Below, in pieces: positions 4,504-31,374 of a DNA stretch of 32,000 bases. Location of the stretch: positions 2,430,001 through 2,462,000 of the forward strand of contig CP126532.1 of NCBI GenBank assembly GCA_030167145.1. The letters run 5' to 3'. The notes under the pieces are model-generated. The model worked only from the letters and a program-made list of their open reading frames with translations. It did not search any database and had not been told where the DNA came from. The DNA is from Ktedonobacterales bacterium (lineage in GTDB: Bacteria; Chloroflexota; Ktedonobacteria; Ktedonobacterales; JADMIN01). Numbering within the stretch: the first letter of the stretch is position 1; each line of letters starts with the position of its first letter. The position numbers and the translations under genes are program-made.

Positions 4504-5625
4504 ATGGGGCAGACAGTCCGCAAGACGTACAAGTACCAACTGAACCCAACACCTAAGCAAGAACACGTGTTGGCAAGCGCCTTGTGGCATTGTCGCATGC
4601 TCTACAATACCGCGTTGGAGCAGCGCAAGGCGTGGTGGCAGCGTGGGCAAGGCAAGAGTGCAACCTACTACCAGCAGAAAGCGGAGTTGCCCGACCTGAA
4701 AGCGTCCAGTCCCGAATATGCTGAGGTACATTCACAGGTCTTGCAGGACGTGCTCTTACGGCTTGAGCACACGTTTGCCGCCTTCTTCCAGCGTATCAAA
4801 GACGGGCAGACGCCGGGCTATCCCCGCTTTCAAGGGCAGAACCGCTATCACTCCTTCACCTATCCACAATACGGCAATGGGGCTATGCTGGATGGGGGCG
4901 TGTTAAGTCTGTCGAAGGTCGGGCGTATTCCCGTTCGGCTCCATCGCCCCCTACAAGGTACACCCAAGTCCGTCACGATTTCGCATGAGGCAGATGGCTG
5001 GTATGTCTGCTTCTCGTGCGCTGAGGTGCCCGTACAGCCCTTGCCACTGACTGGCGAAGAGACGGGTATTGATGTGGGGCTGAAGTCCTTCCTGGTGACG
5101 GCGGAGGGGACATTCGTCGAGAACCCACGGCACTATCGCCGCGACGAGAAACGGCTGAAGAAAGCGCAGCGCGTCGTATCGCGGAGGAAGAAAGGCAGTA
5201 ATCGCCGCAAGAAAGCGGTGAAATTACTCGCCAAGCGACACCAGAAGGTGCGGCGGCAACGGCAGGACTTTCACCACAAAACGGCGCTGGCGTTGGTCCG
5301 CCAATACGATGTGATCTATCTCGAAGACTTGCGGGTTCGCAATCTGGTACGCAACCGTCACCTCGCCAAGAGCATCAGCGATGCCGGGTGGACGCAGTTT
5401 CGTATCACACTTGAGTACAAGGCAGCATGCGCCGGTAAACAGGTGATTGCGGTTGAGCCTGCCTACACCTCCCAGGACTGTAGTGGCTGTGGCGCACGGA
5501 TACAAAAGACGCTCTCCGTGCGCACCCATGTCTGCACGTCCTGCGGACTGGTCATGGACCGCGACGAGAATGCGGCCAGAAATATTCTCAGGTTCGGGCA
5601 GAACCTTCGTGGAGCGGTGGCGTAG
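4504..5625 (+). CDS. tnpB: TnpB (IS605 OrfB) RNA-guided endonuclease, RuvC triad intact
   Basis: N-terminus KTYKYQLNPTPKQ. RuvC D in GIDVGLK, E in IYLEDL, zinc ribbon CSGCG..CTSCG, and D in MDRDENAARNI. Confidence 0.9.
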   Translation: MGQTVRKTYKYQLNPTPKQEHVLASALWHCRMLYNTALEQRKAWWQRGQGKSATYYQQKAELPDLKASSPEYAEVHSQVLQDVLLRLEHTFAAFFQRIKDGQTPGYPRFQGQNRYHSFTYPQYGNGAMLDGGVLSLSKVGRIPVRLHRPLQGTPKSVTISHEADGWYVCFSCAEVPVQPLPLTGEETGIDVGLKSFLVTAEGTFVENPRHYRRDEKRLKKAQRVVSRRKKGSNRRKKAVKLLAKRHQKVRRQRQDFHHKTALALVRQYDVIYLEDLRVRNLVRNRHLAKSISDAGWTQFRITLEYKAACAGKQVIAVEPAYTSQDCSGCGARIQKTLSVRTHVCTSCGLVMDRDENAARNILRFGQNLRGAVA

Positions 5626-8866: not shown

Positions 8867-10105
8867 CTAACACGGCACGGGCACATAGGCTTCGATGAGC
8901 GTGGCACCAGCGCCGCCCCGGCTGACGTTACTCGTGCCCACCGCGAACACATCACCCGCCGCATCAGCGCTCACGGCGTTCAAGCTATCCATGTACACGT
9001 TTGCCGGATCGGGCGTGTCGAGCGTGTTCCAGGCTGCGGTTGTGCCGCTCCACGCCTCCGCCAGCGTGCGCTGCATCTGGTCGCTGTCAGTCTGCACACC
9101 CACAGCGACCACGGCTCGCACTGCCGGATCAGACGTGATAGCGTACAGTGAGTTGCTCGTACCAGGAGCGAAACCTGGACTGGTTACCTCGTTCCACCGG
9201 GAGCCATCCCAATGCAGCAGCAGCGGATTGCCGTGATGGCCACCCGCCGCCCACACATCACGAGCCGAGACCGCTGTGACGGCATGCAAAGCGGCCTCAC
9301 CCATAGAATAGGCCATCACCGTCCACCGCGTGCCGTCCCAATGTTCGATCAACGTCGCGCCACTGGTATCCTTGCCGGTGTACATATAGCCCACCGCCCA
9401 GGCGTCGCCGTCCGCAGCGATGGTCACGCTGGATAAGTCGTCTTGCGCGTGGGTGTGGTCCACTATCGGGCCGTTTGGGCTGGGGACGATGCTCCACCGC
9501 GCGCCATCCCACCGTTCGATCAGCGTAGCCTGGGAGGGGATCTGTGGTGAGGATGACGCCTCCCCGTGCGTCGTTGATCCCACCGCCCATGCCGTGCCAC
9601 CCGCCACCGCAACCGCTTGCAAAGCATTATCCACGCCGGGCACATTGGGGCTGGGCACGACCGCCCAACTGGTCCCATCATAGTGCTCGATCAACGTCCG
9701 CCGGTATGCGCTATTGTACCAAATCGCGCTATAGGCGCCGACCGCCCAGATGTCTGTTGCTGAGGCAGCCGCCACGGCGCTCAGACCGCCATACACATTC
9801 GGCCCAGGCACGATGCTCCACGTTGTGCCGTCCCAATGCTCGAACAGCGGCTTGCCACTATACGAAGAGCCAACAGCCCAGGCATCGGTGCGCGAAATAA
9901 CCGCGACACCCTGAAGCGTGTTGTCCGCCGCCACAATGTTGGGGCTGGCTACGATGCGCCATGCGCCGCACTTCGAGGTGGAGGCCGCCAGCGGCGATGC
10001 GTTCCACGGCAGCCGACCATAGCGCGCTTCGCTCACCCCCACAGCAACCACGCCCATCACCACAACCAGCGCCACACACGCCACGATAATCCGGCGACGA
10101 CTCAC
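8867..10105 (-). CDS. Membrane-anchored beta-propeller-like repeat protein
   Basis: N-terminal TM segment IIVACVALVVVMGVVAVGV. Six to seven repeats of the form (F/I)EHWDG..W..VPSPN...L..V......WAVG. GTG start with GGAG 7 nt upstream. Confidence 0.75.
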   Translation of the reverse strand: MSRRRIIVACVALVVVMGVVAVGVSEARYGRLPWNASPLAASTSKCGAWRIVASPNIVAADNTLQGVAVISRTDAWAVGSSYSGKPLFEHWDGTTWSIVPGPNVYGGLSAVAAASATDIWAVGAYSAIWYNSAYRRTLIEHYDGTSWAVVPSPNVPGVDNALQAVAVAGGTAWAVGSTTHGEASSSPQIPSQATLIERWDGARWSIVPSPNGPIVDHTHAQDDLSSVTIAADGDAWAVGYMYTGKDTSGATLIEHWDGTRWTVMAYSMGEAALHAVTAVSARDVWAAGGHHGNPLLLHWDGSRWNEVTSPGFAPGTSNSLYAITSDPAVRAVVAVGVQTDSDQMQRTLAEAWSGTTAAWNTLDTPDPANVYMDSLNAVSADAAGDVFAVGTSNVSRGGAGATLIEAYVPVPC

Positions 10106-10215: not shown

Positions 10216-11421
10216 TCAATGTTCCGGCGTATGCAGCGCGCCTGCAAGCACGATTGGCCCAGTGGGGCTGGGGCTGCCGCCAGCGGGTTCGGGCGTCACC
10301 GCCAGCGTATCGAAGTCGAGCGGCGGCTCGGCGGCATGCACCACGCTCGCGCCGTGCCCATGCGCGTCCAGCGCGAAGAGCGTGTTCGGCTGCGGCTGTC
10401 CTTCGCGCAGCAGCCACACCTGATACGCGCGGTCCGGGGCAAGCCGCGCCAAACCTGCGCTCACCAGCACCCCATCATGCCGCGAGCGCGCGCTGATGAA
10501 CCGTGCATGCGCATCCCGCCCCTGCGCCGTTCCCGGCACATTGACGATCACGCAATCCGGCTCCGCCAGCAGATCGCGCAGCAATTCGCCCGTCACATCA
10601 CGCTCCGCGCGCCTGCCGAAGAGGCCGCGCAAGAAGCCGCCCACGGATGCGCGCGGCTCAGCCGTCTCGGCTTCCGCGTCTGCCATACGTGTCGCTTGCT
10701 CTCCCGGTGCGCTCGCCTCGCCAAGTTCGCCCGCCAGCACCACCGGCCCGGTCGGTCCCGCGCTGCCCGTGAGCGGCTCTGGCGTGACGGCCAGCGTATC
10801 GAAGTCGAGCAGCGGCTCGGATGTGCGTACAACGCTTGCGCCGTGGCCGTGCGGGTCAATCGCGAAAAGCGCGTTAGGTTGCGGCTCACCCCCGCGCAGG
10901 AACCACACCTGATACGCCTTATCCGCCGCCAGCGGCCCCAGCCCCGCCGTCAGCAGCACCCCCTCGCGCCGTGACCGCGCGCCAACGAACCGCGCGCTCG
11001 CGCCCGCCGCGTGCTCCGTTCCCGGCACGTTCACGATCACGCAATCCGGCTCTGCCAGCAGGTCGCGCAATAACTCGCCCGCCAGATCAGCCGCATCCTC
11101 ATCCGCCTCACCGCCCGGCACCGCGCGCACGACATCTCTGGCGGCGTCACCGGCGGCACGCGCGCTCGCCGCTTCCGCGCGGACACGCGCCAGCACGCGC
11201 ACCCGCAGCGCCGGCGGCGTGGCCACCTGGGGCGCGGCCAGCAGCAGCAGATCGGCGCTGGCGCGGGCCTGAGCCAGCAGCGCCCGGCAGCGGGCGCACC
11301 CTTCCACATGCAGATCCACCGCCGCCACCTCCTCCGGCTCCAGCGCGCCGAGGACGAAGGCGTCTATCAGGTCGTCTACGTGTGTCTCTGGTATCTCTGG
11401 TGTCTCTCGCATGTCCATCAT
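10216..11421 (-). CDS. zf-HC2 anti-sigma factor with two tandem RskA-C-like domains
   Basis: N-terminal H-x3-C-x2-C (HVEGCARC). ATGA start/stop overlap with the upstream ECF sigma gene. Two ~118-aa copies contain AYQVW(F/L)LR.G.PQPN.LFA.D.HGHGASVV...DFDTLAVTPEP. Confidence 0.85.
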   Translation of the reverse strand: MMDMRETPEIPETHVDDLIDAFVLGALEPEEVAAVDLHVEGCARCRALLAQARASADLLLLAAPQVATPPALRVRVLARVRAEAASARAAGDAARDVVRAVPGGEADEDAADLAGELLRDLLAEPDCVIVNVPGTEHAAGASARFVGARSRREGVLLTAGLGPLAADKAYQVWFLRGGEPQPNALFAIDPHGHGASVVRTSEPLLDFDTLAVTPEPLTGSAGPTGPVVLAGELGEASAPGEQATRMADAEAETAEPRASVGGFLRGLFGRRAERDVTGELLRDLLAEPDCVIVNVPGTAQGRDAHARFISARSRHDGVLVSAGLARLAPDRAYQVWLLREGQPQPNTLFALDAHGHGASVVHAAEPPLDFDTLAVTPEPAGGSPSPTGPIVLAGALHTPEH

Positions 11422-13194: not shown

Positions 13195-14061
13195 TCACTC
13201 CCCATCATCGCCAAAGAGTAGCGACTGCTCGGTTGATGAGGCGAGCCGCTTCTGCTCGTCGCGCCTGATCTGCTCAATGCTCTTGGTGGGTGTTGGCAAC
13301 TGCTCAGGGGGTGTGCCGCCCAGGTCTTCGATGGTCTCGCGTACACGCTTGCCCACATCGTAGTGGGTTTGGTTGGCGGCGTCTTTGCCCTGGATGCCCT
13401 CGCGGCGGATCTTCGCTTCGGTCTGCGTAATGCGGAAGAAATTCGCGGCCAACTCTTCGCTGCCCATCCAATCGAGCACTTTCTGCCCGCGCTTCAGCCC
13501 CTTGCGTGCCGCGATGTCCTGCGCCGTCTCGCCGTCGTAGAGGCCACGATAGCCGTGATTCTGAAACGTTGCGAAATCTTGCTGGGTAACGACGCCCGCC
13601 TCATACACGGCGGCAGCCAGATCCACATTGCGCGCGGCGGCTTGGTCGCGCAGCACGATGCGCCGCTGCGCTTCAGTGAGGCCTGTCAGTTCTCCGGCCA
13701 ACTCCGCCCGGCGCGTCTGGATGGCGAAATAGGTCTGACCAAGCGCGACGATGGGCTTCTCTGGGTCCGCGTTCTGCACCACAAGGTAGCAGGCATAGCG
13801 AGACAAATGCCAATCCTCTACTTCACGTATAGCTCCTGAGCCGAGCGTGACCATATTAACATCAGTGTTAAAATGGTCTGTGATGCGCTGGCCGCTGTTC
13901 TCGCATGCAGTCTGTGCGCGCGCAATGACGCCCATGAAGCGCTGCCAGCCACTGTAATCGAGCACCTTTGCCAGCTCACGTGCGCTCCAATACTCGCCGC
14001 CGCCTTCTGCCTCGTGGCGGATCTGCTCAAATGGCGATACACGCTGTGTGTTGTCGCTCAT
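13195..14061 (-). CDS. dinD: DNA-damage-inducible protein D (DinD family)
   Basis: Collinear with my recollection of E. coli DinD: PFEQIRHE..YWSARELAKVLDYS, SRYACYLVVQNADPEKP, GQTYFAIQTRRAEL, FQNHGYRGLY, GSEELAANFFRITQTE, LGGTPPEQLPTP. Start set at ATG 14061 (MSDNTQ, GGGGGAGAGG upstream) rather than the track start at 14130. Confidence 0.9.
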   Translation of the reverse strand: MSDNTQRVSPFEQIRHEAEGGGEYWSARELAKVLDYSGWQRFMGVIARAQTACENSGQRITDHFNTDVNMVTLGSGAIREVEDWHLSRYACYLVVQNADPEKPIVALGQTYFAIQTRRAELAGELTGLTEAQRRIVLRDQAAARNVDLAAAVYEAGVVTQQDFATFQNHGYRGLYDGETAQDIAARKGLKRGQKVLDWMGSEELAANFFRITQTEAKIRREGIQGKDAANQTHYDVGKRVRETIEDLGGTPPEQLPTPTKSIEQIRRDEQKRLASSTEQSLLFGDDGE

Positions 14062-14304
14062 GCCAAACCTCTCCCCCAAGCCCGCCACACGTGAGCGGCC
14101 AAACACAACGGCCACGCGCACCCATCCCATGTGAGAGACAGGTCCACGTGGCCGGAATATCCCAAAACCACTGTGCGAACGTCGTGTCCGTCTGATAGAC
14201 TAGACTCAGGCGTGCCCTGCCAACTTCAGGATGCGCTCAGCGGTCCGGGCAGTGTTACGAGCACTGCGCGGGCCGCGCCCATTTGTGCGGGCTTGTTATG
14301 TACC
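14062..14304 (-). promoter_or_regulatory. Conserved ~240-nt 5' leader of dinD (copy A of a repeated leader)
   Basis: Aligns with 21365-21615. It has a 66-nt 100%-identical core (14095-14160) and further identical blocks, e.g. tctgatagactagactcaggcgtg and caggatgcgctcagcggtccgg. See findings. Confidence 0.6.
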
Positions 14305-14333
14305 AGTATACCATAACGCGATGCGATTGTCAC
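14305..14333 (-). promoter_or_regulatory. Extended -10 promoter GTGACA-N17-(TGG)TATACT, copy A
   Basis: Minus strand reads gtgacaatcgcatcgcgttatggtatact. Near-identical copies lie at 21616-21644 and 22913-22941. Confidence 0.6.
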
Positions 14334-20452: not shown

Positions 20453-21364
20453 CTAGTTGTCTGGTGTGCCAGTTGCGCTGCCCGGCTCAGCGGCAAAGAG
20501 TTGTGGTTGTTTCGCGCTGGCCGTCAGGCTCTTCGCATTCTCGCTGCTCACCACTGGGCGGCCTGTCTCGGCTTCGATCTGCTGGCGCGCCGAGCCAGCA
20601 ATCTCCCCAGCCTTCTGCGCGTCCCCCTGCAACTCGATGAATCCTTGGCTATCGTGCGCTTGATGCAACGCCGTCGCGGTCGCCTCAGAGAGCATCGTCA
20701 GCGCCAATTCCAGCGAGGTCATATTGTCGCGCAGATTCTCGCGCGGCTTCAACTGCTTGATCTGCTTATGCTCGTTCGTAGAAGCATCGAACGCGCCACG
20801 ATGCAAAATCTCGGAGAGGACGGCGAACTCGCGTCCCTCCTCAGCGCCCCGGTCGCGCCACTCGGTCGTCAGGTCGTCGCGCACCGTGATGCCCCGCAAG
20901 CGCAGTTCGATCCATTCCTCGTCGTAGCCGCGTTTGCGGTAGAGCAGCCGCAACGAGTCCGCCGCCACACGCGGATTGTCGAGCTCTTCCAGCCGTTGCA
21001 CGCCAACCCGCGCCAACCATTGCTTGAACGGCTCAGCCTTCGGCGACGGAATGCTCTGGATGATGCGCAGCAGCGTCTCCGTATCCGCCGCATCGGTCAG
21101 CCGCTGTTTGCCGTCAAGCGCTGCCATTTTCAACTGTTGGCATTTTGCCAACACTTCAACAAACCCTTCGTCTTGAATCCGCCGCTTCATATCGGCCCAA
21201 TACATCCGGGGCTTGGGCGTGTCGGTCAGCAGCCCCACGACATCAATCACACTGAAGAACCACCGCCCCTCGTGCCACACCCGCCGTACTTGCTGCTCCG
21301 CCTGCTCGTCGAGCAGATCCAACCCCATCGCGTCGTTCCGGTCATCATCGCTGTTGTTGGTCAC
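20453..21364 (-). CDS. Bro-N domain protein with DinD-like C-terminal module (DinD paralog)
   Basis: Bro-N: VRRVWHEGRWFFSVIDVVGLLTD...AEPFKQWLARVGVQRLEE. C-terminal: YRKRGYDEEWIELRLRGI..LRDNMTSLELALTMLSE, parallel to the DinD C-terminal region. GTG start at 21364 with GAGGAGGG 7 nt upstream. Confidence 0.8.
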   Translation of the reverse strand: MTNNSDDDRNDAMGLDLLDEQAEQQVRRVWHEGRWFFSVIDVVGLLTDTPKPRMYWADMKRRIQDEGFVEVLAKCQQLKMAALDGKQRLTDAADTETLLRIIQSIPSPKAEPFKQWLARVGVQRLEELDNPRVAADSLRLLYRKRGYDEEWIELRLRGITVRDDLTTEWRDRGAEEGREFAVLSEILHRGAFDASTNEHKQIKQLKPRENLRDNMTSLELALTMLSEATATALHQAHDSQGFIELQGDAQKAGEIAGSARQQIEAETGRPVVSSENAKSLTASAKQPQLFAAEPGSATGTPDN

Positions 21365-21615
21365 GCGAAGACCCTCCTCAAGCCCACCAGCCACAGGCGG
21401 CCAAACACAACGGCCACGCGCACCCATCCCATGTGAGAGACAGGTCCACGTGGCCGGAATATGCTCGATACCCCAAATACCTCTGTGCGAACGCCGCGTC
21501 TATCTGATAGACTAGACTCAGGCGTGTCCTGCTTCTTCCAGGATGCGCTCAGCGGTCCGGCAGTGCGTCCAACACTGGTCGGGCCGCGCCCATGTGTGTA
21601 AGCTTGTCGTAGGCC
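21365..21615 (-). promoter_or_regulatory. Conserved ~250-nt 5' leader (copy B of the repeated leader)
   Basis: Aligns with 14062-14304. The 66-nt identical core is at 21397-21462. Confidence 0.6.
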
Positions 21616-21644
21616 AGTATACCATAACACGATGCAATTGTCAC
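21616..21644 (-). promoter_or_regulatory. Extended -10 promoter GTGACA-N17-(TGG)TATACT, copy B
   Basis: Minus strand reads gtgacaattgcatcgtgttatggtatact. Confidence 0.6.
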
Positions 21645-21710: not shown

Positions 21711-22565
21711 TCACCGCTGACGCCGCTGCTCAGCAGCCGCTATCCGCGCACGGAACCACGACGCCACCCGCAGCCACTCATTCTCCGCAATGTCACTGTA
21801 TTTGCCAACGTGAAACGCTTCGTTCAGCTCGCCATAGATCGTGGCGTAGGCGCTACCCGTCAGCTCGCTCAGCCGTCTCGCCGACGCCTTCACCGTCGCC
21901 TGATGCTCCGGCGTCAGCGTTTGTGGTCCTAGCCGGTCGAGAATCTCCGGCACCAACCGCGTAATCTCTTCGACGCTCTCCAACCGGCTTTCCACCGACC
22001 CACGCCACCGCTCGATATCCGCCTGCCAGTCTATGTATGCGAGCATCCCTTGATGGTATGCGCGCCAGGCTGAAAGCGGCGCGCCCTCGCCCGGCGCTTC
22101 CGGCTGGGTGATCGGGTCGGCGGGTACGAGATTCACGGGCGTAGGCAGTTCGGCCCGCGGCTGCGAAAAGTGACGATAGAGCACATCGGCGGCCTCGCGA
22201 CGGAATGCTCGAATCGCCGCACGCTTCTCTGCGGTAAGTTTACCCGTCCGCACACCAGTGAGCCAAAGCGGAATCCCCCATGCTGCCAGTACATCCATTG
22301 CCTGCGTCTCGCCGGTCAGGTTATCAGCCACAAGCGCGAACAGAAGGTGATCGGCAAGCACGTCGTCGGTACGGATACGCCGAGCCTGCGATGCGCGATC
22401 TAAGTCCAGTGCGGTACAGAGGTCAGTAAGTACCGCCGCGATGCTGCCATCAGGCAATCGTACCGCGCGTATGTCATGCCCGTAGAAGGTTACGACATCG
22501 CTTGCCAAAGGTTGAACCACCTGTCCGTTGCTCTGCCCTGGCTGCCCGTTTCCATTTTCATTCAC
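21711..22565 (-). CDS. Phage antirepressor-type protein (P22_AR_N-like N-terminus, ORF6C-like C-terminus)
   Basis: VVTFYGHDIRAVRLPDGSIAAVLTDLCTALDLDRASQARRI..IPLWLTGV..KRAAIRAFRREAADVLYRHF, then C-terminal YATIYGELNEAFHVGKYSDI. GTG start at 22565 with AGGAG 8 nt upstream. Confidence 0.75.
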   Translation of the reverse strand: MNENGNGQPGQSNGQVVQPLASDVVTFYGHDIRAVRLPDGSIAAVLTDLCTALDLDRASQARRIRTDDVLADHLLFALVADNLTGETQAMDVLAAWGIPLWLTGVRTGKLTAEKRAAIRAFRREAADVLYRHFSQPRAELPTPVNLVPADPITQPEAPGEGAPLSAWRAYHQGMLAYIDWQADIERWRGSVESRLESVEEITRLVPEILDRLGPQTLTPEHQATVKASARRLSELTGSAYATIYGELNEAFHVGKYSDIAENEWLRVASWFRARIAAAEQRRQR

Positions 22566-22912
22566 GGTTCTCGCTCCTATCCTCCACAACAATCAGACAG
22601 CAGTCATTTTGACTGCTGGTAGCTCGCTATACCATGCCAAGCCAGACAATACAAGGCTTTCCCCAAGGGTCTATCATGGGGAGTACATGTCTGCACGCCT
22701 CCTCCTGGGATATGGAGACGCTGAAGTGAGGAATCGGATCGGGGGAAAGCAGAGATGCCTGCGGCTTGGGCCTGCGATGTCAGATGAGTCTATGCTATTG
22801 CCCGTGCCGCATGCTATGCTGCTACAAGCCCTGTCCGCTGCTACCGTCAGCGCCGGGGTCAGAGCGCCGTTCGTGTTGTCAGCACGGACGGCGTTCGCAC
22901 ATTGATGTGGCA

Positions 22913-22941
22913 AGTATACCATAACGCGATGCGATTATCAG
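22913..22941 (-). promoter_or_regulatory. Third copy of the shared promoter (CTGATA-N17-(TGG)TATACT)
   Basis: Minus strand reads ctgataatcgcatcgcgttatggtatact. The spacer is identical to copy A. It overlaps the stop codon of the upstream FAD oxidoreductase gene. Confidence 0.5.
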
Positions 22942-24188
22942 CCGGAAAAACCAGCCTGTGGATGCGCAAGCGCGCTCACCTGCCGCATGGGGTCTGCCGC
23001 CGCGAGGAGAGGCGCAGCCTCGCCAGTATGGATGTAATCGGCCAGAAGTTTGCCCGCCATTGGCCCCTGCTCGAAACCCGATGAACTCAAGCCAGTGAGC
23101 ACATAGAGGCGCTCGAACCCTGAAATCTTGCCGATAATCGGCTCCAGCCTCGCGGTGAAGGGCATCCAGCCCGCCCAGGTGCGCTGGATGGGCAGGTCGC
23201 GCAGGAACGGAAAGAGTTCGCGGGCGTGTGCGTGATTCGCGGCGATGCCTTCCGGGTCGGGCGTCGCGTCGTCGCTGAGTTGCCGGTCGCCGCCGATGAT
23301 GATCGTGCCGTCGCGCAGTTGCTGACCGTAGAGGTGACGGGTGCGGCGCGCTCCCTCCCAGTGGGTCAGTTCGAGCGGTGTGGTCGCACTGCCTGCCGGA
23401 TCGGCATGCCAGTAGCGCGCGGATTCCACTGCGCCGATGCTATGGAACAGGCGGCGCGCCGTAGGCGCTGTCGCCCACATCTGGCCGCGCACCGCGAAGA
23501 CCGGAAGCTCCAGGCCGAGCAACGCGCCCACCTGCCGCGACCACGCCCCCGCCGCCAGCACCAGGGTGCGCGCGGAAAACACGCGCCCCTCCGTCGTGGT
23601 AACGGTATAGCCTGCGCCATCATCCCCGCACGCCAGCGCCGTAACGTCGTGCCCAGGCAGGATGCGCGCGCCGTGGCGCTGCGCCTCCGCCGCGAACGCG
23701 CGCGTGATGGCGGCGGGATCGGCGCTCGCCCCCAGCGGATAGGAGACGCAACCCAATACGTGATCGCTTAATGCGGGTTCGATGGTGCGCGCGTCCCTGG
23801 CATCGCATAGTTCCACGTGAAACCCTTGCGTCGTCAGCCGTCGCACGCTCTCGCTGGCAAACTGATATTCCGCTTCGGTCTGGATGACCTGCAAAGAACC
23901 ACCCTGTCGGAATCCAAGGTCATAGTCAAGCTCAAACTGAAACGTCTGGAACATCTCCAGGCTGCCCATCGAGAGCGTTGAGTCGAGGGTAGGCAATGTA
24001 CCCCAACCGACCGCCCAGATCGTGCCCGCGTTGAGACCAGAGGCCGCGCCCGCAATCTCACCGCGTTCCAGCAGCGTCACGTCATGCCCATATCGGGCCA
24101 AATAATAGGCGGTCGAAGTTCCAGCGATACCGCCGCCAAGCACAAGCACCTCGCTGCGGTCATCGTTCGCCATTGCGCCCGCTTTCAT
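22938..24188 (-). CDS. FAD-dependent oxidoreductase (DAO / glycine-sarcosine oxidase-like)
   Basis: VLVLGGGIAGTSTAYYLARYGHDVTLLE is a Rossmann GxGxxG dinucleotide fold. ATGA overlap with the upstream radical SAM gene. Confidence 0.85.
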   Translation of the reverse strand: MKAGAMANDDRSEVLVLGGGIAGTSTAYYLARYGHDVTLLERGEIAGAASGLNAGTIWAVGWGTLPTLDSTLSMGSLEMFQTFQFELDYDLGFRQGGSLQVIQTEAEYQFASESVRRLTTQGFHVELCDARDARTIEPALSDHVLGCVSYPLGASADPAAITRAFAAEAQRHGARILPGHDVTALACGDDGAGYTVTTTEGRVFSARTLVLAAGAWSRQVGALLGLELPVFAVRGQMWATAPTARRLFHSIGAVESARYWHADPAGSATTPLELTHWEGARRTRHLYGQQLRDGTIIIGGDRQLSDDATPDPEGIAANHAHARELFPFLRDLPIQRTWAGWMPFTARLEPIIGKISGFERLYVLTGLSSSGFEQGPMAGKLLADYIHTGEAAPLLAAADPMRQVSALAHPQAGFSG

Positions 24189-30206: not shown

Positions 30207-30420
30207 ACACGGGACATAATCACCGTGACTACTCTCCCGCATACATGCGGGAGCTTCTAGGAGCAAGCCCCAAGGTGTGTAGCCCCACACCTAAAATGTT
30301 CAGACTGGCGTTGAAATCACGGTCGAGAACCACCCTGCAGCAGGGGCAGGTATAGATGCGGTCTGCAAGGGAGAGCGGTTGCCGATGTCCACACTGCGAG
30401 CAATCTTGACTGGTATACGC
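30207..30420 (-). ncRNA. Predicted omega-RNA of the second TnpB (scaffold overlaps the tnpB 3' end; guide acggtgattatgtcccgtgt)
   Basis: By analogy with characterised systems. A perfect 8-bp hairpin at 30234-30253 lies inside the last tnpB codons. The guide is the 16-20 nt beyond the inferred right end (30226 downward). The 5' end was not determined. Confidence 0.35.
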
Positions 30421-31374
30421 GGGGTTCACTGCCACATACTTTCGACCGGCCCATGCTGCCTTGTACGAGAGGGTGGCGGCGAACTGACTCCACGCCGCGT
30501 CATGAATGCTCTTGGCGAGACAATGGTTGTGCATCATCCGGTTGACCGACAAATCTTCGACGGCGATGAGGTCGAAGCCATCAACGATACGGCGGCTGTG
30601 CTGGTGGGCGAAGTCGCTCCGTCGCCATCGAATCCGCTCATGCACCCGCGCTACCACCTTGCGCCGCGTGGCGCGCTCCGATGTGCCCTTTTCTTCCTTG
30701 CTGAGACGCCGCTGTACCTTCGCCAGAACCGTTTCTTCGGCACGGAAGAAACGCGGGTTAGCGATTTCCAGCCCAGTCGAGAGCGTGGCAAAGGTCTTCA
30801 AGCCCACATCAATCCCCACCTGCTGCCCGATCTCTGGCAGTGGGGGTGGCTCAGCACATTCACACGAGAAGCAGACATACCATTTGCCGGTACTGCTGCG
30901 GCTGATCGTCGCCGTCTTGGCTGTGCCTTCCCATTGGCGATGGAGTACGATCTTTACCAAGCCGACGCCATGCAACCGCAGACGCCGCGCATCCGCATCC
31001 AGCGTGCAGCCTACTGGCACCTGGGGATAGGTGAGGCTGGCGTAGCGCCCCTGGCCGCGAAAGCGCGGATAACCAGGTTCTCGCTCACCGGCCTTCATAC
31101 GGCGGAAGAACGCCTGAAACGCCAAGTCAATGCGGACCGCGACATTCTGCAACACCTGCGATTGGACACTAGCCAGTGTGGGTCGCTCAGCTTTGAGCAC
31201 AGGCAATGTCGCCTGCTGGTCGTAGAGGCGCAGCGATTCTTGCCGCTGCTCCCAGGCGTCGCGCCGGGCAGCCAGCAGTTCATTGTAGAGCCAGCGGCAC
31301 TCCTCAAGCTGCTGTGCGAGGAGGCGCTGCTGCTGCTTGGTCGGGTACAAGCGGTACTTAAACGTCTTACGCAT
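30229..31374 (-). CDS. tnpB: TnpB (IS605 OrfB) RNA-guided endonuclease, RuvC triad intact
   Basis: MRKTFKYRLYPTKQQ, GIDVGLK, IAVEDL, CSQCG..CPCC, LDRDFNASLNI. Confidence 0.9.
   Translation of the reverse strand: MRKTFKYRLYPTKQQQRLLAQQLEECRWLYNELLAARRDAWEQRQESLRLYDQQATLPVLKAERPTLASVQSQVLQNVAVRIDLAFQAFFRRMKAGEREPGYPRFRGQGRYASLTYPQVPVGCTLDADARRLRLHGVGLVKIVLHRQWEGTAKTATISRSSTGKWYVCFSCECAEPPPLPEIGQQVGIDVGLKTFATLSTGLEIANPRFFRAEETVLAKVQRRLSKEEKGTSERATRRKVVARVHERIRWRRSDFAHQHSRRIVDGFDLIAVEDLSVNRMMHNHCLAKSIHDAAWSQFAATLSYKAAWAGRKYVAVNPAYTSQDCSQCGHRQPLSLADRIYTCPCCRVVLDRDFNASLNILGVGLHTLGLAPRSSRMYAGE

Follow-up and report, generated by a model that had tools for sequence, protein, structure and literature searches.

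Evidence for a probable family of cis-antisense RNAs facing a repeated promoter of Bro-N/DinD-like and P22_AR_N genes in a Ktedonobacterales genome

A stretch of 32 kb, referred to here as the window, was analyzed. It is part of a 5.07-Mb contig from a Ktedonobacterales (Chloroflexota) metagenome-assembled genome (MAG; locus tags OJF49_, JGI 3300045419). A repeated promoter precedes three minus strand genes in the window (A, B and C) and a fourth gene with a Bro-N domain (D) outside it. An earlier note on this DNA had described an 11-bp dyad and a 10-nt box, read as a protein-binding site, just downstream of promoter C. The dyad and the box are most likely the 3' hairpin and tail of a plus strand antisense RNA of ~80 nt, as judged from comparison of homologous leaders. 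Members of the same predicted RNA family were found opposite promoters A, B and D. The coordinates of all features are listed in Table 1.

The C-type leaders compared were those of locus C and of three loci found from homologs of protein C. L016 is a gene C paralog of the same genome, 70-90 kb away, L021 is from another Ktedonobacterales MAG and L151 is from a metagenome. The order of elements was the same in 4/4 loci. On the gene strand an extended -10 (TGNTAYACT) was followed by 11-12 nt, GTGCG and a hairpin of 14-16 bp. After the hairpin came CTGACCCC(C)GGCGCTG-N7-CAGCG..AGGGCT, 6-9 nt and AG(C/G)ATANCA. The hairpin was present at the dyad position in all four loci with a different sequence in each, and the stem of paralog L016 was completely different from that of locus C. 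In the alignment of the four sequences (A6) 96.2% of cells paired. This was equaled by 0/500 shuffles, and slid partners paired at 35-48%. At locus C this structure is hairpin 2, whose core is the dyad CGCCGTTCGTG-N7-CACGGACGGCG at 22865-22893. The dyad is present as the earlier note gave it, with one G-T on the plus strand. Ten of the 16 pairs of hairpin 2 were changed on both sides among the four sequences. Pairing was kept and sequence was not, and this is therefore the signature of an RNA helix and not of an operator. The reading of the dyad as a strong inverted repeat for a protein was thus not borne out, as the half-site sequence of a palindromic operator would have to be shared and here differed in each homologous leader while the pairing was retained.

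The same helices pointed to the plus strand. The C-type helices contained 16 G.U pairs on the plus strand compared to 1 on the gene strand, where the others are C.A. In hairpin 2 the G.U pairs become C.A mismatches on the minus strand, and the stem is perfect only on the plus strand. Minimum free energies (MFE) of the four C-type loci ranged from -43 to -57 kcal/mol on the plus strand and from -34.5 to -49 kcal/mol on the minus strand, the plus strand being better by 8-12 kcal/mol everywhere. The region 22827-22907 folded at -43.2 kcal/mol on the plus strand (z -4.18, 0/200 shuffles as good) and at -30.9 kcal/mol on the minus strand (z -1.22, 24/200 shuffles as good). Covariation, G.U bias and fold z-scores all showed a conserved structure specific to the antisense strand. 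A structured plus strand RNA was considered highly probable at locus C.

A putative promoter for this RNA was also conserved. In 4/4 C-type loci the motif TGNTAT(G/C)CT preceded the RNA's first base by 6-7 nt. It is the last conserved block of these leaders, read on the plus strand as TGCTATGCT, TGATATGCT, TGTTATCCT and TGCTATCCT, has the form of an extended -10 and ends 6-7 nt before the opening A. With the copies opposite A, B and D included, TGNTATNCT or TGATAGNNT was located 6-7 nt before the first structured base in 7/7 copies, so that at the sequence level each copy has a predicted convergent promoter. The -10 elements of the TGGTATNCT type are common in the window, with 10 sites compared to 1.8 expected.

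A covariance model, R1, was built from the four C-type plus strand sequences only. In the window R1 gave three matches, all full length and on the plus strand. These were 22827-22907 (93.2 bits), 14208-14287 (38.1 bits, E 2e-7) and 21520-21598 (36.5 bits, E 5e-7). Copy D scored 28.9 bits with filters off, and the E-values for A, B and D ranged from 2e-7 to 5e-5. The earlier note had held the remainder of leader C to be unrelated to leaders A and B. Since a model made from C-type sequences alone matches the plus strand opposite promoters A, B and D, leader C is related to A and B, and a predicted RNA of one and the same family lies opposite every copy of the promoter module. At A, B and D the match starts 7 nt after TGATAGACT or TGATAGCAT on the plus strand. 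The RNA opposite A ends in a terminator-like hairpin at 14273-14290 with a U-rich GCTTGTTATG tail. Fold z-scores on the plus and minus strands were -3.85 and -1.38 for A and -2.89 and -1.88 for B. In the seven-sequence alignment (A8) 95.2% of cells paired and 16/27 pairs were changed on both sides. Hairpin 2 accounted for 12/16 of its pairs changed in this way and hairpin 1 for 4 pairs, the latter seen when A, B and D were included.

The leader had no blastn match to phage records, and gene C homologs in phage-like contexts (L018, L144, L155, L168) had no such leader. In viral contigs there were >120 chance matches to the 15-mer core of the RNA, none fitting R1, and a stricter 20-base pattern gave 0. 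R1 itself had no match at E<=0.01 in the 860 kb of GC-rich viral contigs containing the core. A protein-based search of viral contigs returned 2 distant loci.

The box CGTTCGCACA occurs exactly three times in the window, as previously reported, on the minus strand at A and B and on the plus strand at C. The extended box ACGGAC-N4/N2-CGTTCGCACA is likewise present in A and C. No occurrence beyond the three window copies was found in the 168 loci fetched, and the counterpart in copy D is CGTTTGCACA. As leaders A and B arose by duplication (~85% identity over ~320 nt), the box has two independent occurrences and not three. In C the box, viewed on the minus strand, covers ~+6 to +15 of the sense transcript, and its invariant part in the four C-type leaders is CGCAC only (GTGCG on the minus strand). 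In A, B and D it is outside the antisense RNA, on the other strand and over the antisense -35, and in the A/B/D alignment the box and the antisense -10 are conserved islands within a poorly conserved stretch. The earlier note had argued that conservation independent of orientation indicates a DNA site. The positions of the box relative to the promoters are unequal in C and in A/B/D and only GTGCG is kept in C-type relatives, as is not expected of a shared operator. Because the positions are not homologous, it is not natural to read them as a single operator in two orientations.

An inverted similarity between A/B and C was found by eye. B and the plus strand of C have the 13-mer CGGCGTTCGCACA in common, and the inverted match of A and C spans ~25 nt with two gaps. 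Local alignment scores were 28 and 26 compared to 18.3 ± 2.4 for 1000 dinucleotide shuffles (p~0.01). This is suggestive, being moderately beyond chance and not compelling.

The proposal of the earlier note, in which a protein co-regulating the promoter copies binds CGTTCGCACA as its operator, alone or together with the dyad, was considered unlikely. The protein could be a repressor of the LexA-like or XRE kind, or one of the Bro-N/KilA-N-type proteins, and could coexist with an antisense RNA. Bound at the antisense -35 of A/B/D and at +6 to +15 of C it could balance the convergent pair. Three exact copies of the box within 9 kb with none elsewhere in the 168 loci are consistent with an operator, as are the inverted similarity, the conserved island CGTTYGCACAG amid differing flanks in A/B/D, the invariant GTGCG beside a variable stem in 4/4 C-type leaders, and the overlap of the box with promoter elements in both leader types. 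These points are set against the duplication of A and B, the retention of only 5/10 bases in C-type relatives and the unequal positions relative to the shared RNA or promoters. In addition, the gene C paralog of the same genome reads CGTGCGCGAG with a different stem, the dyad covaries rather than being conserved, and the spacing of ACGGAC differs (N4 compared to N2). There is no GAAC-N4-GTTC LexA box, and no helix-turn-helix (HTH) regulator gene was present among the genes of the ~40 kb examined around the loci. Nothing found in the sequence would require a protein site at the box.

The LexA/SOS box of the Gram-positive and Dehalococcoides type is CGAAC-N4-GTTCG. At promoters A-C a LexA box was rejected, as the bases found 4 nt beyond GAAC of the box are TCCG in C, TGTC in A and CGTC in B, and the promoter spacer has no dyad. 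A separate likeness was seen outside the window. The sequence ACGTGGCGATAGCC upstream of the B-ortholog promoter (L161 2850-2870) resembles ACGTGCGATAGGC at the 5' end of a C-type leader (L021 3785-3800). L161 and L021 are from the same MAG, GCA_036376595.1. This likeness may be a counterpart of the box relationship in the window, or chance.

Promoter C was confirmed as a further copy of the sigma-70-type extended -10 promoter upstream of a gene with a P22_AR_N domain. The sequence AATCGCATCGCGTTATGGTATACT was found on the minus strand at 14305-14328 (0 mismatches), 21616-21639 (2) and 22913-22936 (0), with none expected in 100 shuffles. Promoter C is identical to A and D at 24/24 bases and to B at 22/24. 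In a consensus scan it had 9/12 consensus matches with TG one base upstream of the -10, and its predicted start is at ~22906. The hexamer spacing (16-18 nt in this class) and the TG identify it as a predicted sigma-70-type extended -10 promoter. The upstream FAD oxidoreductase gene (open reading frame (ORF) 22938-24188) has its stop codon within this -35. Hairpin 2 was rejected as a terminator of that gene, as there is no U-tract and that strand has the C.A mismatches.

The identity of C to A and D covers exactly the 24-nt module and the sequences diverge beyond it. An A-type leader follows promoter D (L003 270-545, ~1.6-1.9 kb past the right end of the window). The module identity is suggestive either of a recent exchange between paralogs of the cluster or of selection acting on the spacer. 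Among the genomes compared the module and the A-type leader were found only in the source genome. A search of 185,579 species genomes and JGI metagenomes, collections in which the source genome was not found, gave unrelated chance matches only. The promoters of the C-type relatives are ordinary extended -10 promoters without the ATCGCATCGCG spacer. Homologs of B with other promoters and no A-type leader were the ortholog L161 (78% identical), L163 (73%) and the paralog L162. This distribution, the abrupt end of the C identity at the promoter edge and the post hoc nature of the p~0.01 for the inverted match would fit an arrangement with no regulatory meaning, in which a promoter cassette was spread by duplication or gene conversion and the 10-13-mer is chance or a conversion remnant. 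That was considered very unlikely, as the C-type leader, with both -10s and the hairpins, is conserved in at least 3 genomes with compensatory changes, which is unexpected for neutral sequence.

The sense leaders are ~240 nt (A, B) and ~340 nt (C) in length. The terminator-like hairpin of leader C is directly upstream of the Shine-Dalgarno sequence GGAGG, and one is found at the same place in L016, L021 and L151. The terminator hairpin of leader A folded at -37.3 kcal/mol on the minus strand (z -5.49), compared to a z of -1.72 on the plus strand. It is identical in B, and its pairing is kept in D through G.U-compatible changes. The polarity of structure flips along the leaders, being antisense-specific at the 5' end and sense-specific further downstream. 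A predicted intrinsic terminator upstream of the ribosome-binding site, as attenuation would use, was thus present in leaders C and A and their homologs.

These leaders would also suit an element acting in the sense strand. No antisense RNA would then be made, and the hairpins would serve as a 5' domain, riboswitch-like or protein-binding, through which the terminator is controlled. In favor of this, a strong sense promoter is repeated, the leaders are long and end in sense-strand-specific terminator-like hairpins, and the sense strand can still fold imperfect forms of the hairpins. In A/B/D a long-range helix joins the 5' end (AAGCCCGC) to GYGGGCUU before the Shine-Dalgarno sequence, with changes on both sides. 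This was judged improbable. The wobbles favor the plus strand (16 to 1), the sense fold of the overlapped region is no better than shuffles (z -1.2 to -1.9), the conserved antisense -10 at a fixed distance is left unexplained and no Rfam riboswitch or leader family matched.

Several other features were seen in the leaders. A small hairpin is present in the sense A/B/D leaders at 14191-14210 and 21503-21522 (minus strand) and at L003 405-430. It has the form GUCUaGUCU-auc-AGACGGAC in A and GGCGUCAUG-cuauc-AUGAuuCGCC in D. Between A/B and D it is changed on both sides, and the antisense -10 element falls within the loop. A short hydrophobic ORF (MGWVRVAVVFGR...) lies on the minus strand at 14128-14130 (A), 21361-21432 (B) and L003 ~477-551 (D). 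It encodes 23 amino acids in B and 24 in D, is fused in frame to gene A, and begins in the loop of the leader terminator hairpin. The MGWVRVAVVFGR peptide is kept in D via a synonymous GTG>GTA, but has a TTG start, and there is no Shine-Dalgarno sequence. This ORF could simply result from conservation of the hairpin, or it could encode a leader or toxin-like peptide. Small ORFs in leader C (MCERRPC and a 30-amino acid ORF after GGAGGAGG) were rejected, as they are not conserved in the homologous leaders. Upstream of the gene C paralog (L016 9840-10000) there are two tandem units of ~60 nt and the start of a third which reaches the ATG. Each unit consists of the palindrome GGCTAGA-N5-TCTAGCC, then TTACACAAAGGGG, then a terminator-like hairpin. 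No feature of the window resembles a protein operator as much as this palindrome does.

In the proposed mechanism two extended -10 promoters would converge, ~95 bp apart at C and ~95-105 bp apart over the copies. Promoter C would start the ~340-nt leader on the minus strand at ~22906. The element TGCTATGCT (22812-22820, plus strand) would start an RNA of ~80 nt at 22827, with two hairpins and a GCACA tail, and this RNA would be an exact complement of the leader's first ~80 nt. A two-hairpin RNA of this kind is predicted opposite all four copies of the module (A-D), each before a Bro-N/DinD-like or P22_AR_N gene. Antisense RNA and convergent transcription together would keep the downstream gene off. 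Silencing could take place by promoter interference, by formation of a duplex with the nascent leader or by enhanced termination before the ribosome-binding site, and leader termination would be the read-out. The production of either RNA, the 3' end of the antisense RNA and the silencing route used are what we infer from the sequence.

Antisense RNA with a convergent promoter was held, as a whole, to be the probable explanation, with appreciable doubt. That the plus strand RNA regulates the downstream gene in cis was thought rather likely. Attenuation specifically is a tentative proposal, and was rated lower because no antiterminator was found. The leader terminator forms in the MFE fold with or without the antisense target masked. 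This weighs against the explanation, as do a number of other points. The -35 of the antisense promoter is poor (ATGCTA in C, GTGCGA in A) and the consensus promoter scan did not call the antisense promoters. The C-type copies have no U-tract 3' of hairpin 2, which makes the 3' end of the RNA there a tentative one. The 7 RNA copies come from 3 genomes, with 5 of these in one genome. Alignment A8 was fitted to the model, and its figures therefore lean toward the model. The inverted 13-nt identity of B and C (p~0.01) is left unexplained by an antisense RNA. Finally, gene C has a possible weak proximal promoter at 22654-22626 on the minus strand (TTGTAT-17-TATAGC with TG), with the antisense RNA region on one side and the leader terminator on the other. 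Were it active, the main product of promoter C might be a separate sense RNA.

A functional role for the inverted match of 13-25 nt, joining the four loci in a single switch, was thought distinctly unlikely. In one version, based on RNA-RNA contact, the C sense transcript may use its 5' end (UGUGCGAACGCCGUCCGU) to pair in trans with the box segment of A/B/D (ACGGAC..CGUUCGCACA), just before the terminators. In a protein version a Bro-N/KilA-N-type product may bind TGTGCGAACG at the antisense -35 of A/B/D and at +6 of promoter C, and may thereby set the direction of each convergent pair. If true, either version would allow a cluster of DinD/PDC-S13-like candidate defence genes in Chloroflexota to be switched on in a coordinated and possibly bistable manner.

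The DNA of the window is ordinary chromosome. It encodes UvrB, a radical-SAM protein, an FAD oxidoreductase, an EamA transporter, an anti-sigma factor and two IS605 TnpB proteins. Gene A matched the DinD equivalog model at 374.8 bits (cut-off 242). The P22_AR_N domain of gene C matched with an E-value of 6.9e-14, and an identical gene call of 284 amino acids is already on record. The start codons of A and B were moved from the upstream ATGs of the ORF list to ATG 14061 and, probably, GTG 21364, because the DNA-level similarity of A and B ends there. Each is predicted to have a Shine-Dalgarno sequence. The two TnpB genes at 4504-5625 (plus strand) and 30229-31374 (minus strand) belong to the IS605 family (OrfB_IS605 and Cas12f1-like TNB) and are inverted to each other. 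They have a perfect 20-nt match and a 49-nt stretch at 71% identity (4999-5090 with 30791-30882), and flank ~25 kb containing genes A, B and C. The ORF at 8867-10105, with a weak match to beta-propeller Rax2, has five repeats of ~52 nt spaced by 129-171 nt in the region 9174-9849. The anti-sigma factor gene at 10216-11421 has an internal duplication of 300 nt (77% identity; 10286-11074), and the RskA_C domain was matched twice. The repeats at 9174-9849 and 10286-11074 are protein repeats and not non-coding elements.

Table 1. Positions of the predicted RNAs, promoters, hairpins, boxes and genes. Positions are those of the window unless a locus is named.
Feature	Position	Strand	Description
Predicted cis-antisense RNA (C)	22827..22907	+	~80 nt; fully complementary to ~first 80 nt of promoter C transcript
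Hairpin 1	22828..22859	+	GCCCUG..CGCUG-loop-CAGCG.CGGGGU; mostly invariant among C-type copies
Hairpin 2	22862..22896	+	Perfect 16-bp stem (22862-22877 with 22881-22896); 3 G.U pairs; core is the 11-bp dyad
Predicted antisense promoter (C)	22812..22820	+	Extended -10 TGCTATGCT; predicted start A 22827
R1-family RNA opposite A	14208..14287	+	Extended -10 TGATAGACT at 14193-14201 (predicted)
R1-family RNA opposite B	21520..21598	+	Extended -10 TGATAGACT at 21505-21513 (predicted)
R1-family RNA opposite D	L003 318-397	opposite promoter D	28.9 bits
Box in C	22892..22901	+	CGTTCGCACA; last 5 nt of hairpin 2 3' arm and single-stranded tail GCACA
Box in A	14172..14181	-	Reads TGTGCGAACG on + strand; over -35 GTGCGA (14173-14178, 17-nt spacer) of antisense promoter
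Box in B	21484..21493	-	13-mer CGGCGTTCGCACA in common with + strand of C
Sense promoter C	22913..22941	-	-35 CTGATA (22941-22936), 17-nt spacer ATCGCATCGCGTTATGG, TG, -10 TATACT (22918-22913)
Sense promoter A	14305..14333	-	GTGACA-17-TATACT with TG (consensus scan)
Sense promoter B	21616..21644	-	2 transitions in spacer
Sense promoter D	L003 270-299		Fourth copy, just beyond the window
Terminator-like hairpin C	22588..22618 (hairpin 22618-22598)	-	CAGCAGTCA-aaa-TGACTGCTG and TCTGATTGTT; z -3.6
Terminator-like hairpin A	14101..14155	-	20 bp and UUGUGUUU; upstream of Shine-Dalgarno sequence and ATG 14061
Gene A	13195..14061	-	DinD (DNA damage-inducible protein D) equivalog; Bro-N domain; match to PADLOC candidate PDC-S13
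Gene B	20453..21364	-	Bro-N protein; PADLOC PDC-S13 match; start probably GTG 21364
Gene C	21711..22565	-	284 amino acids; P22_AR_N (antirepressor N-terminal) domain; start GTG 22565
Gene D	L003 542-1468		Beyond right end of the window, same contig; Bro-N gene, fourth with the promoter module

The predicted antisense RNA is a new family of a well-known kind, the cis-antisense regulators, and is outside all Rfam families. No Rfam family reached its gathering score anywhere in the window. The best similarities below threshold, on the plus strand from 22827, were to SymR (RF01809; 30 bits, gathering 61) and ctRNA_pGA1 (RF00236; 19.9 bits, gathering 45). A literature search for Ktedonobacter antisense RNA, Bro-N-associated RNA and PDC-S13 found nothing relevant, and no described small regulatory RNAs in Chloroflexota were found in the literature. 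A speculative operator is replaced by a testable predicted RNA gene, which is linked to a specific class of genes: DinD equivalents, Bro-N proteins matching PDC-S13 and P22_AR_N proteins. If the RNA is real, convergent promoters would act with an antisense RNA and a leader terminator to control these genes tightly, as is typical of toxic or conditionally needed genes. R1 can be used to find more copies.

Among known systems SymR/SymE scored highest in Rfam. The strand agrees and the layout likewise has two hairpins. SymR is also antisense to the 5' end of a damage-inducible gene, and gene A is a DinD equivalent. In contrast to SymR/SymE, the score here is below the gathering score, there is no SymE homolog and the RNA is off the start codon. 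The Sar RNA of P22 silences the antirepressor gene ant and overlaps its ribosome-binding site. The present case is like Sar in having a small predicted antisense RNA at an antirepressor-type gene, gene C carrying a P22_AR_N domain. Unlike Sar, the RNA at 22827-22907 is >260 nt upstream of the start at 22565 and clear of the ribosome-binding site, the arc/mnt context is missing and no phage record is similar. Sar is described by Liao 1987 and Wu 1987, both in the reference list of PMC2629481.

The plasmid countertranscripts and pCF10 offer further parallels in the control of 5' leaders. Plasmid countertranscripts (pT181 RNAI/II, pIP501 RNAIII) are short cis-antisense RNAs rich in stem-loops which act on a 5' leader with an attenuator before the ribosome-binding site. 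The predicted arrangement resembles them in its cis-antisense RNA on a 5' leader and its attenuator-like hairpin just upstream of the ribosome-binding site. It differs in the score of ctRNA_pGA1, which is below gathering, in the non-replication genes and in the non-plasmid context. At prgQ/prgX of pCF10 in Enterococcus faecalis, with Anti-Q, convergent promoters combine antisense-enhanced leader termination with transcriptional interference (PMC3181467). The overlap here is ~80-90 nt compared to 223 nt in pCF10. Unlike pCF10, the antisense transcript has no PrgX-like repressor gene or peptide signal, the locus lies on a chromosome of Chloroflexota, the sequences are not similar and no antiterminator/terminator switch was seen. 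The two systems are alike in their facing promoters with overlapping 5' ends, a small RNA complementary to the other leader and a factor-independent terminator before the regulated genes, all of these being predicted in the present case.

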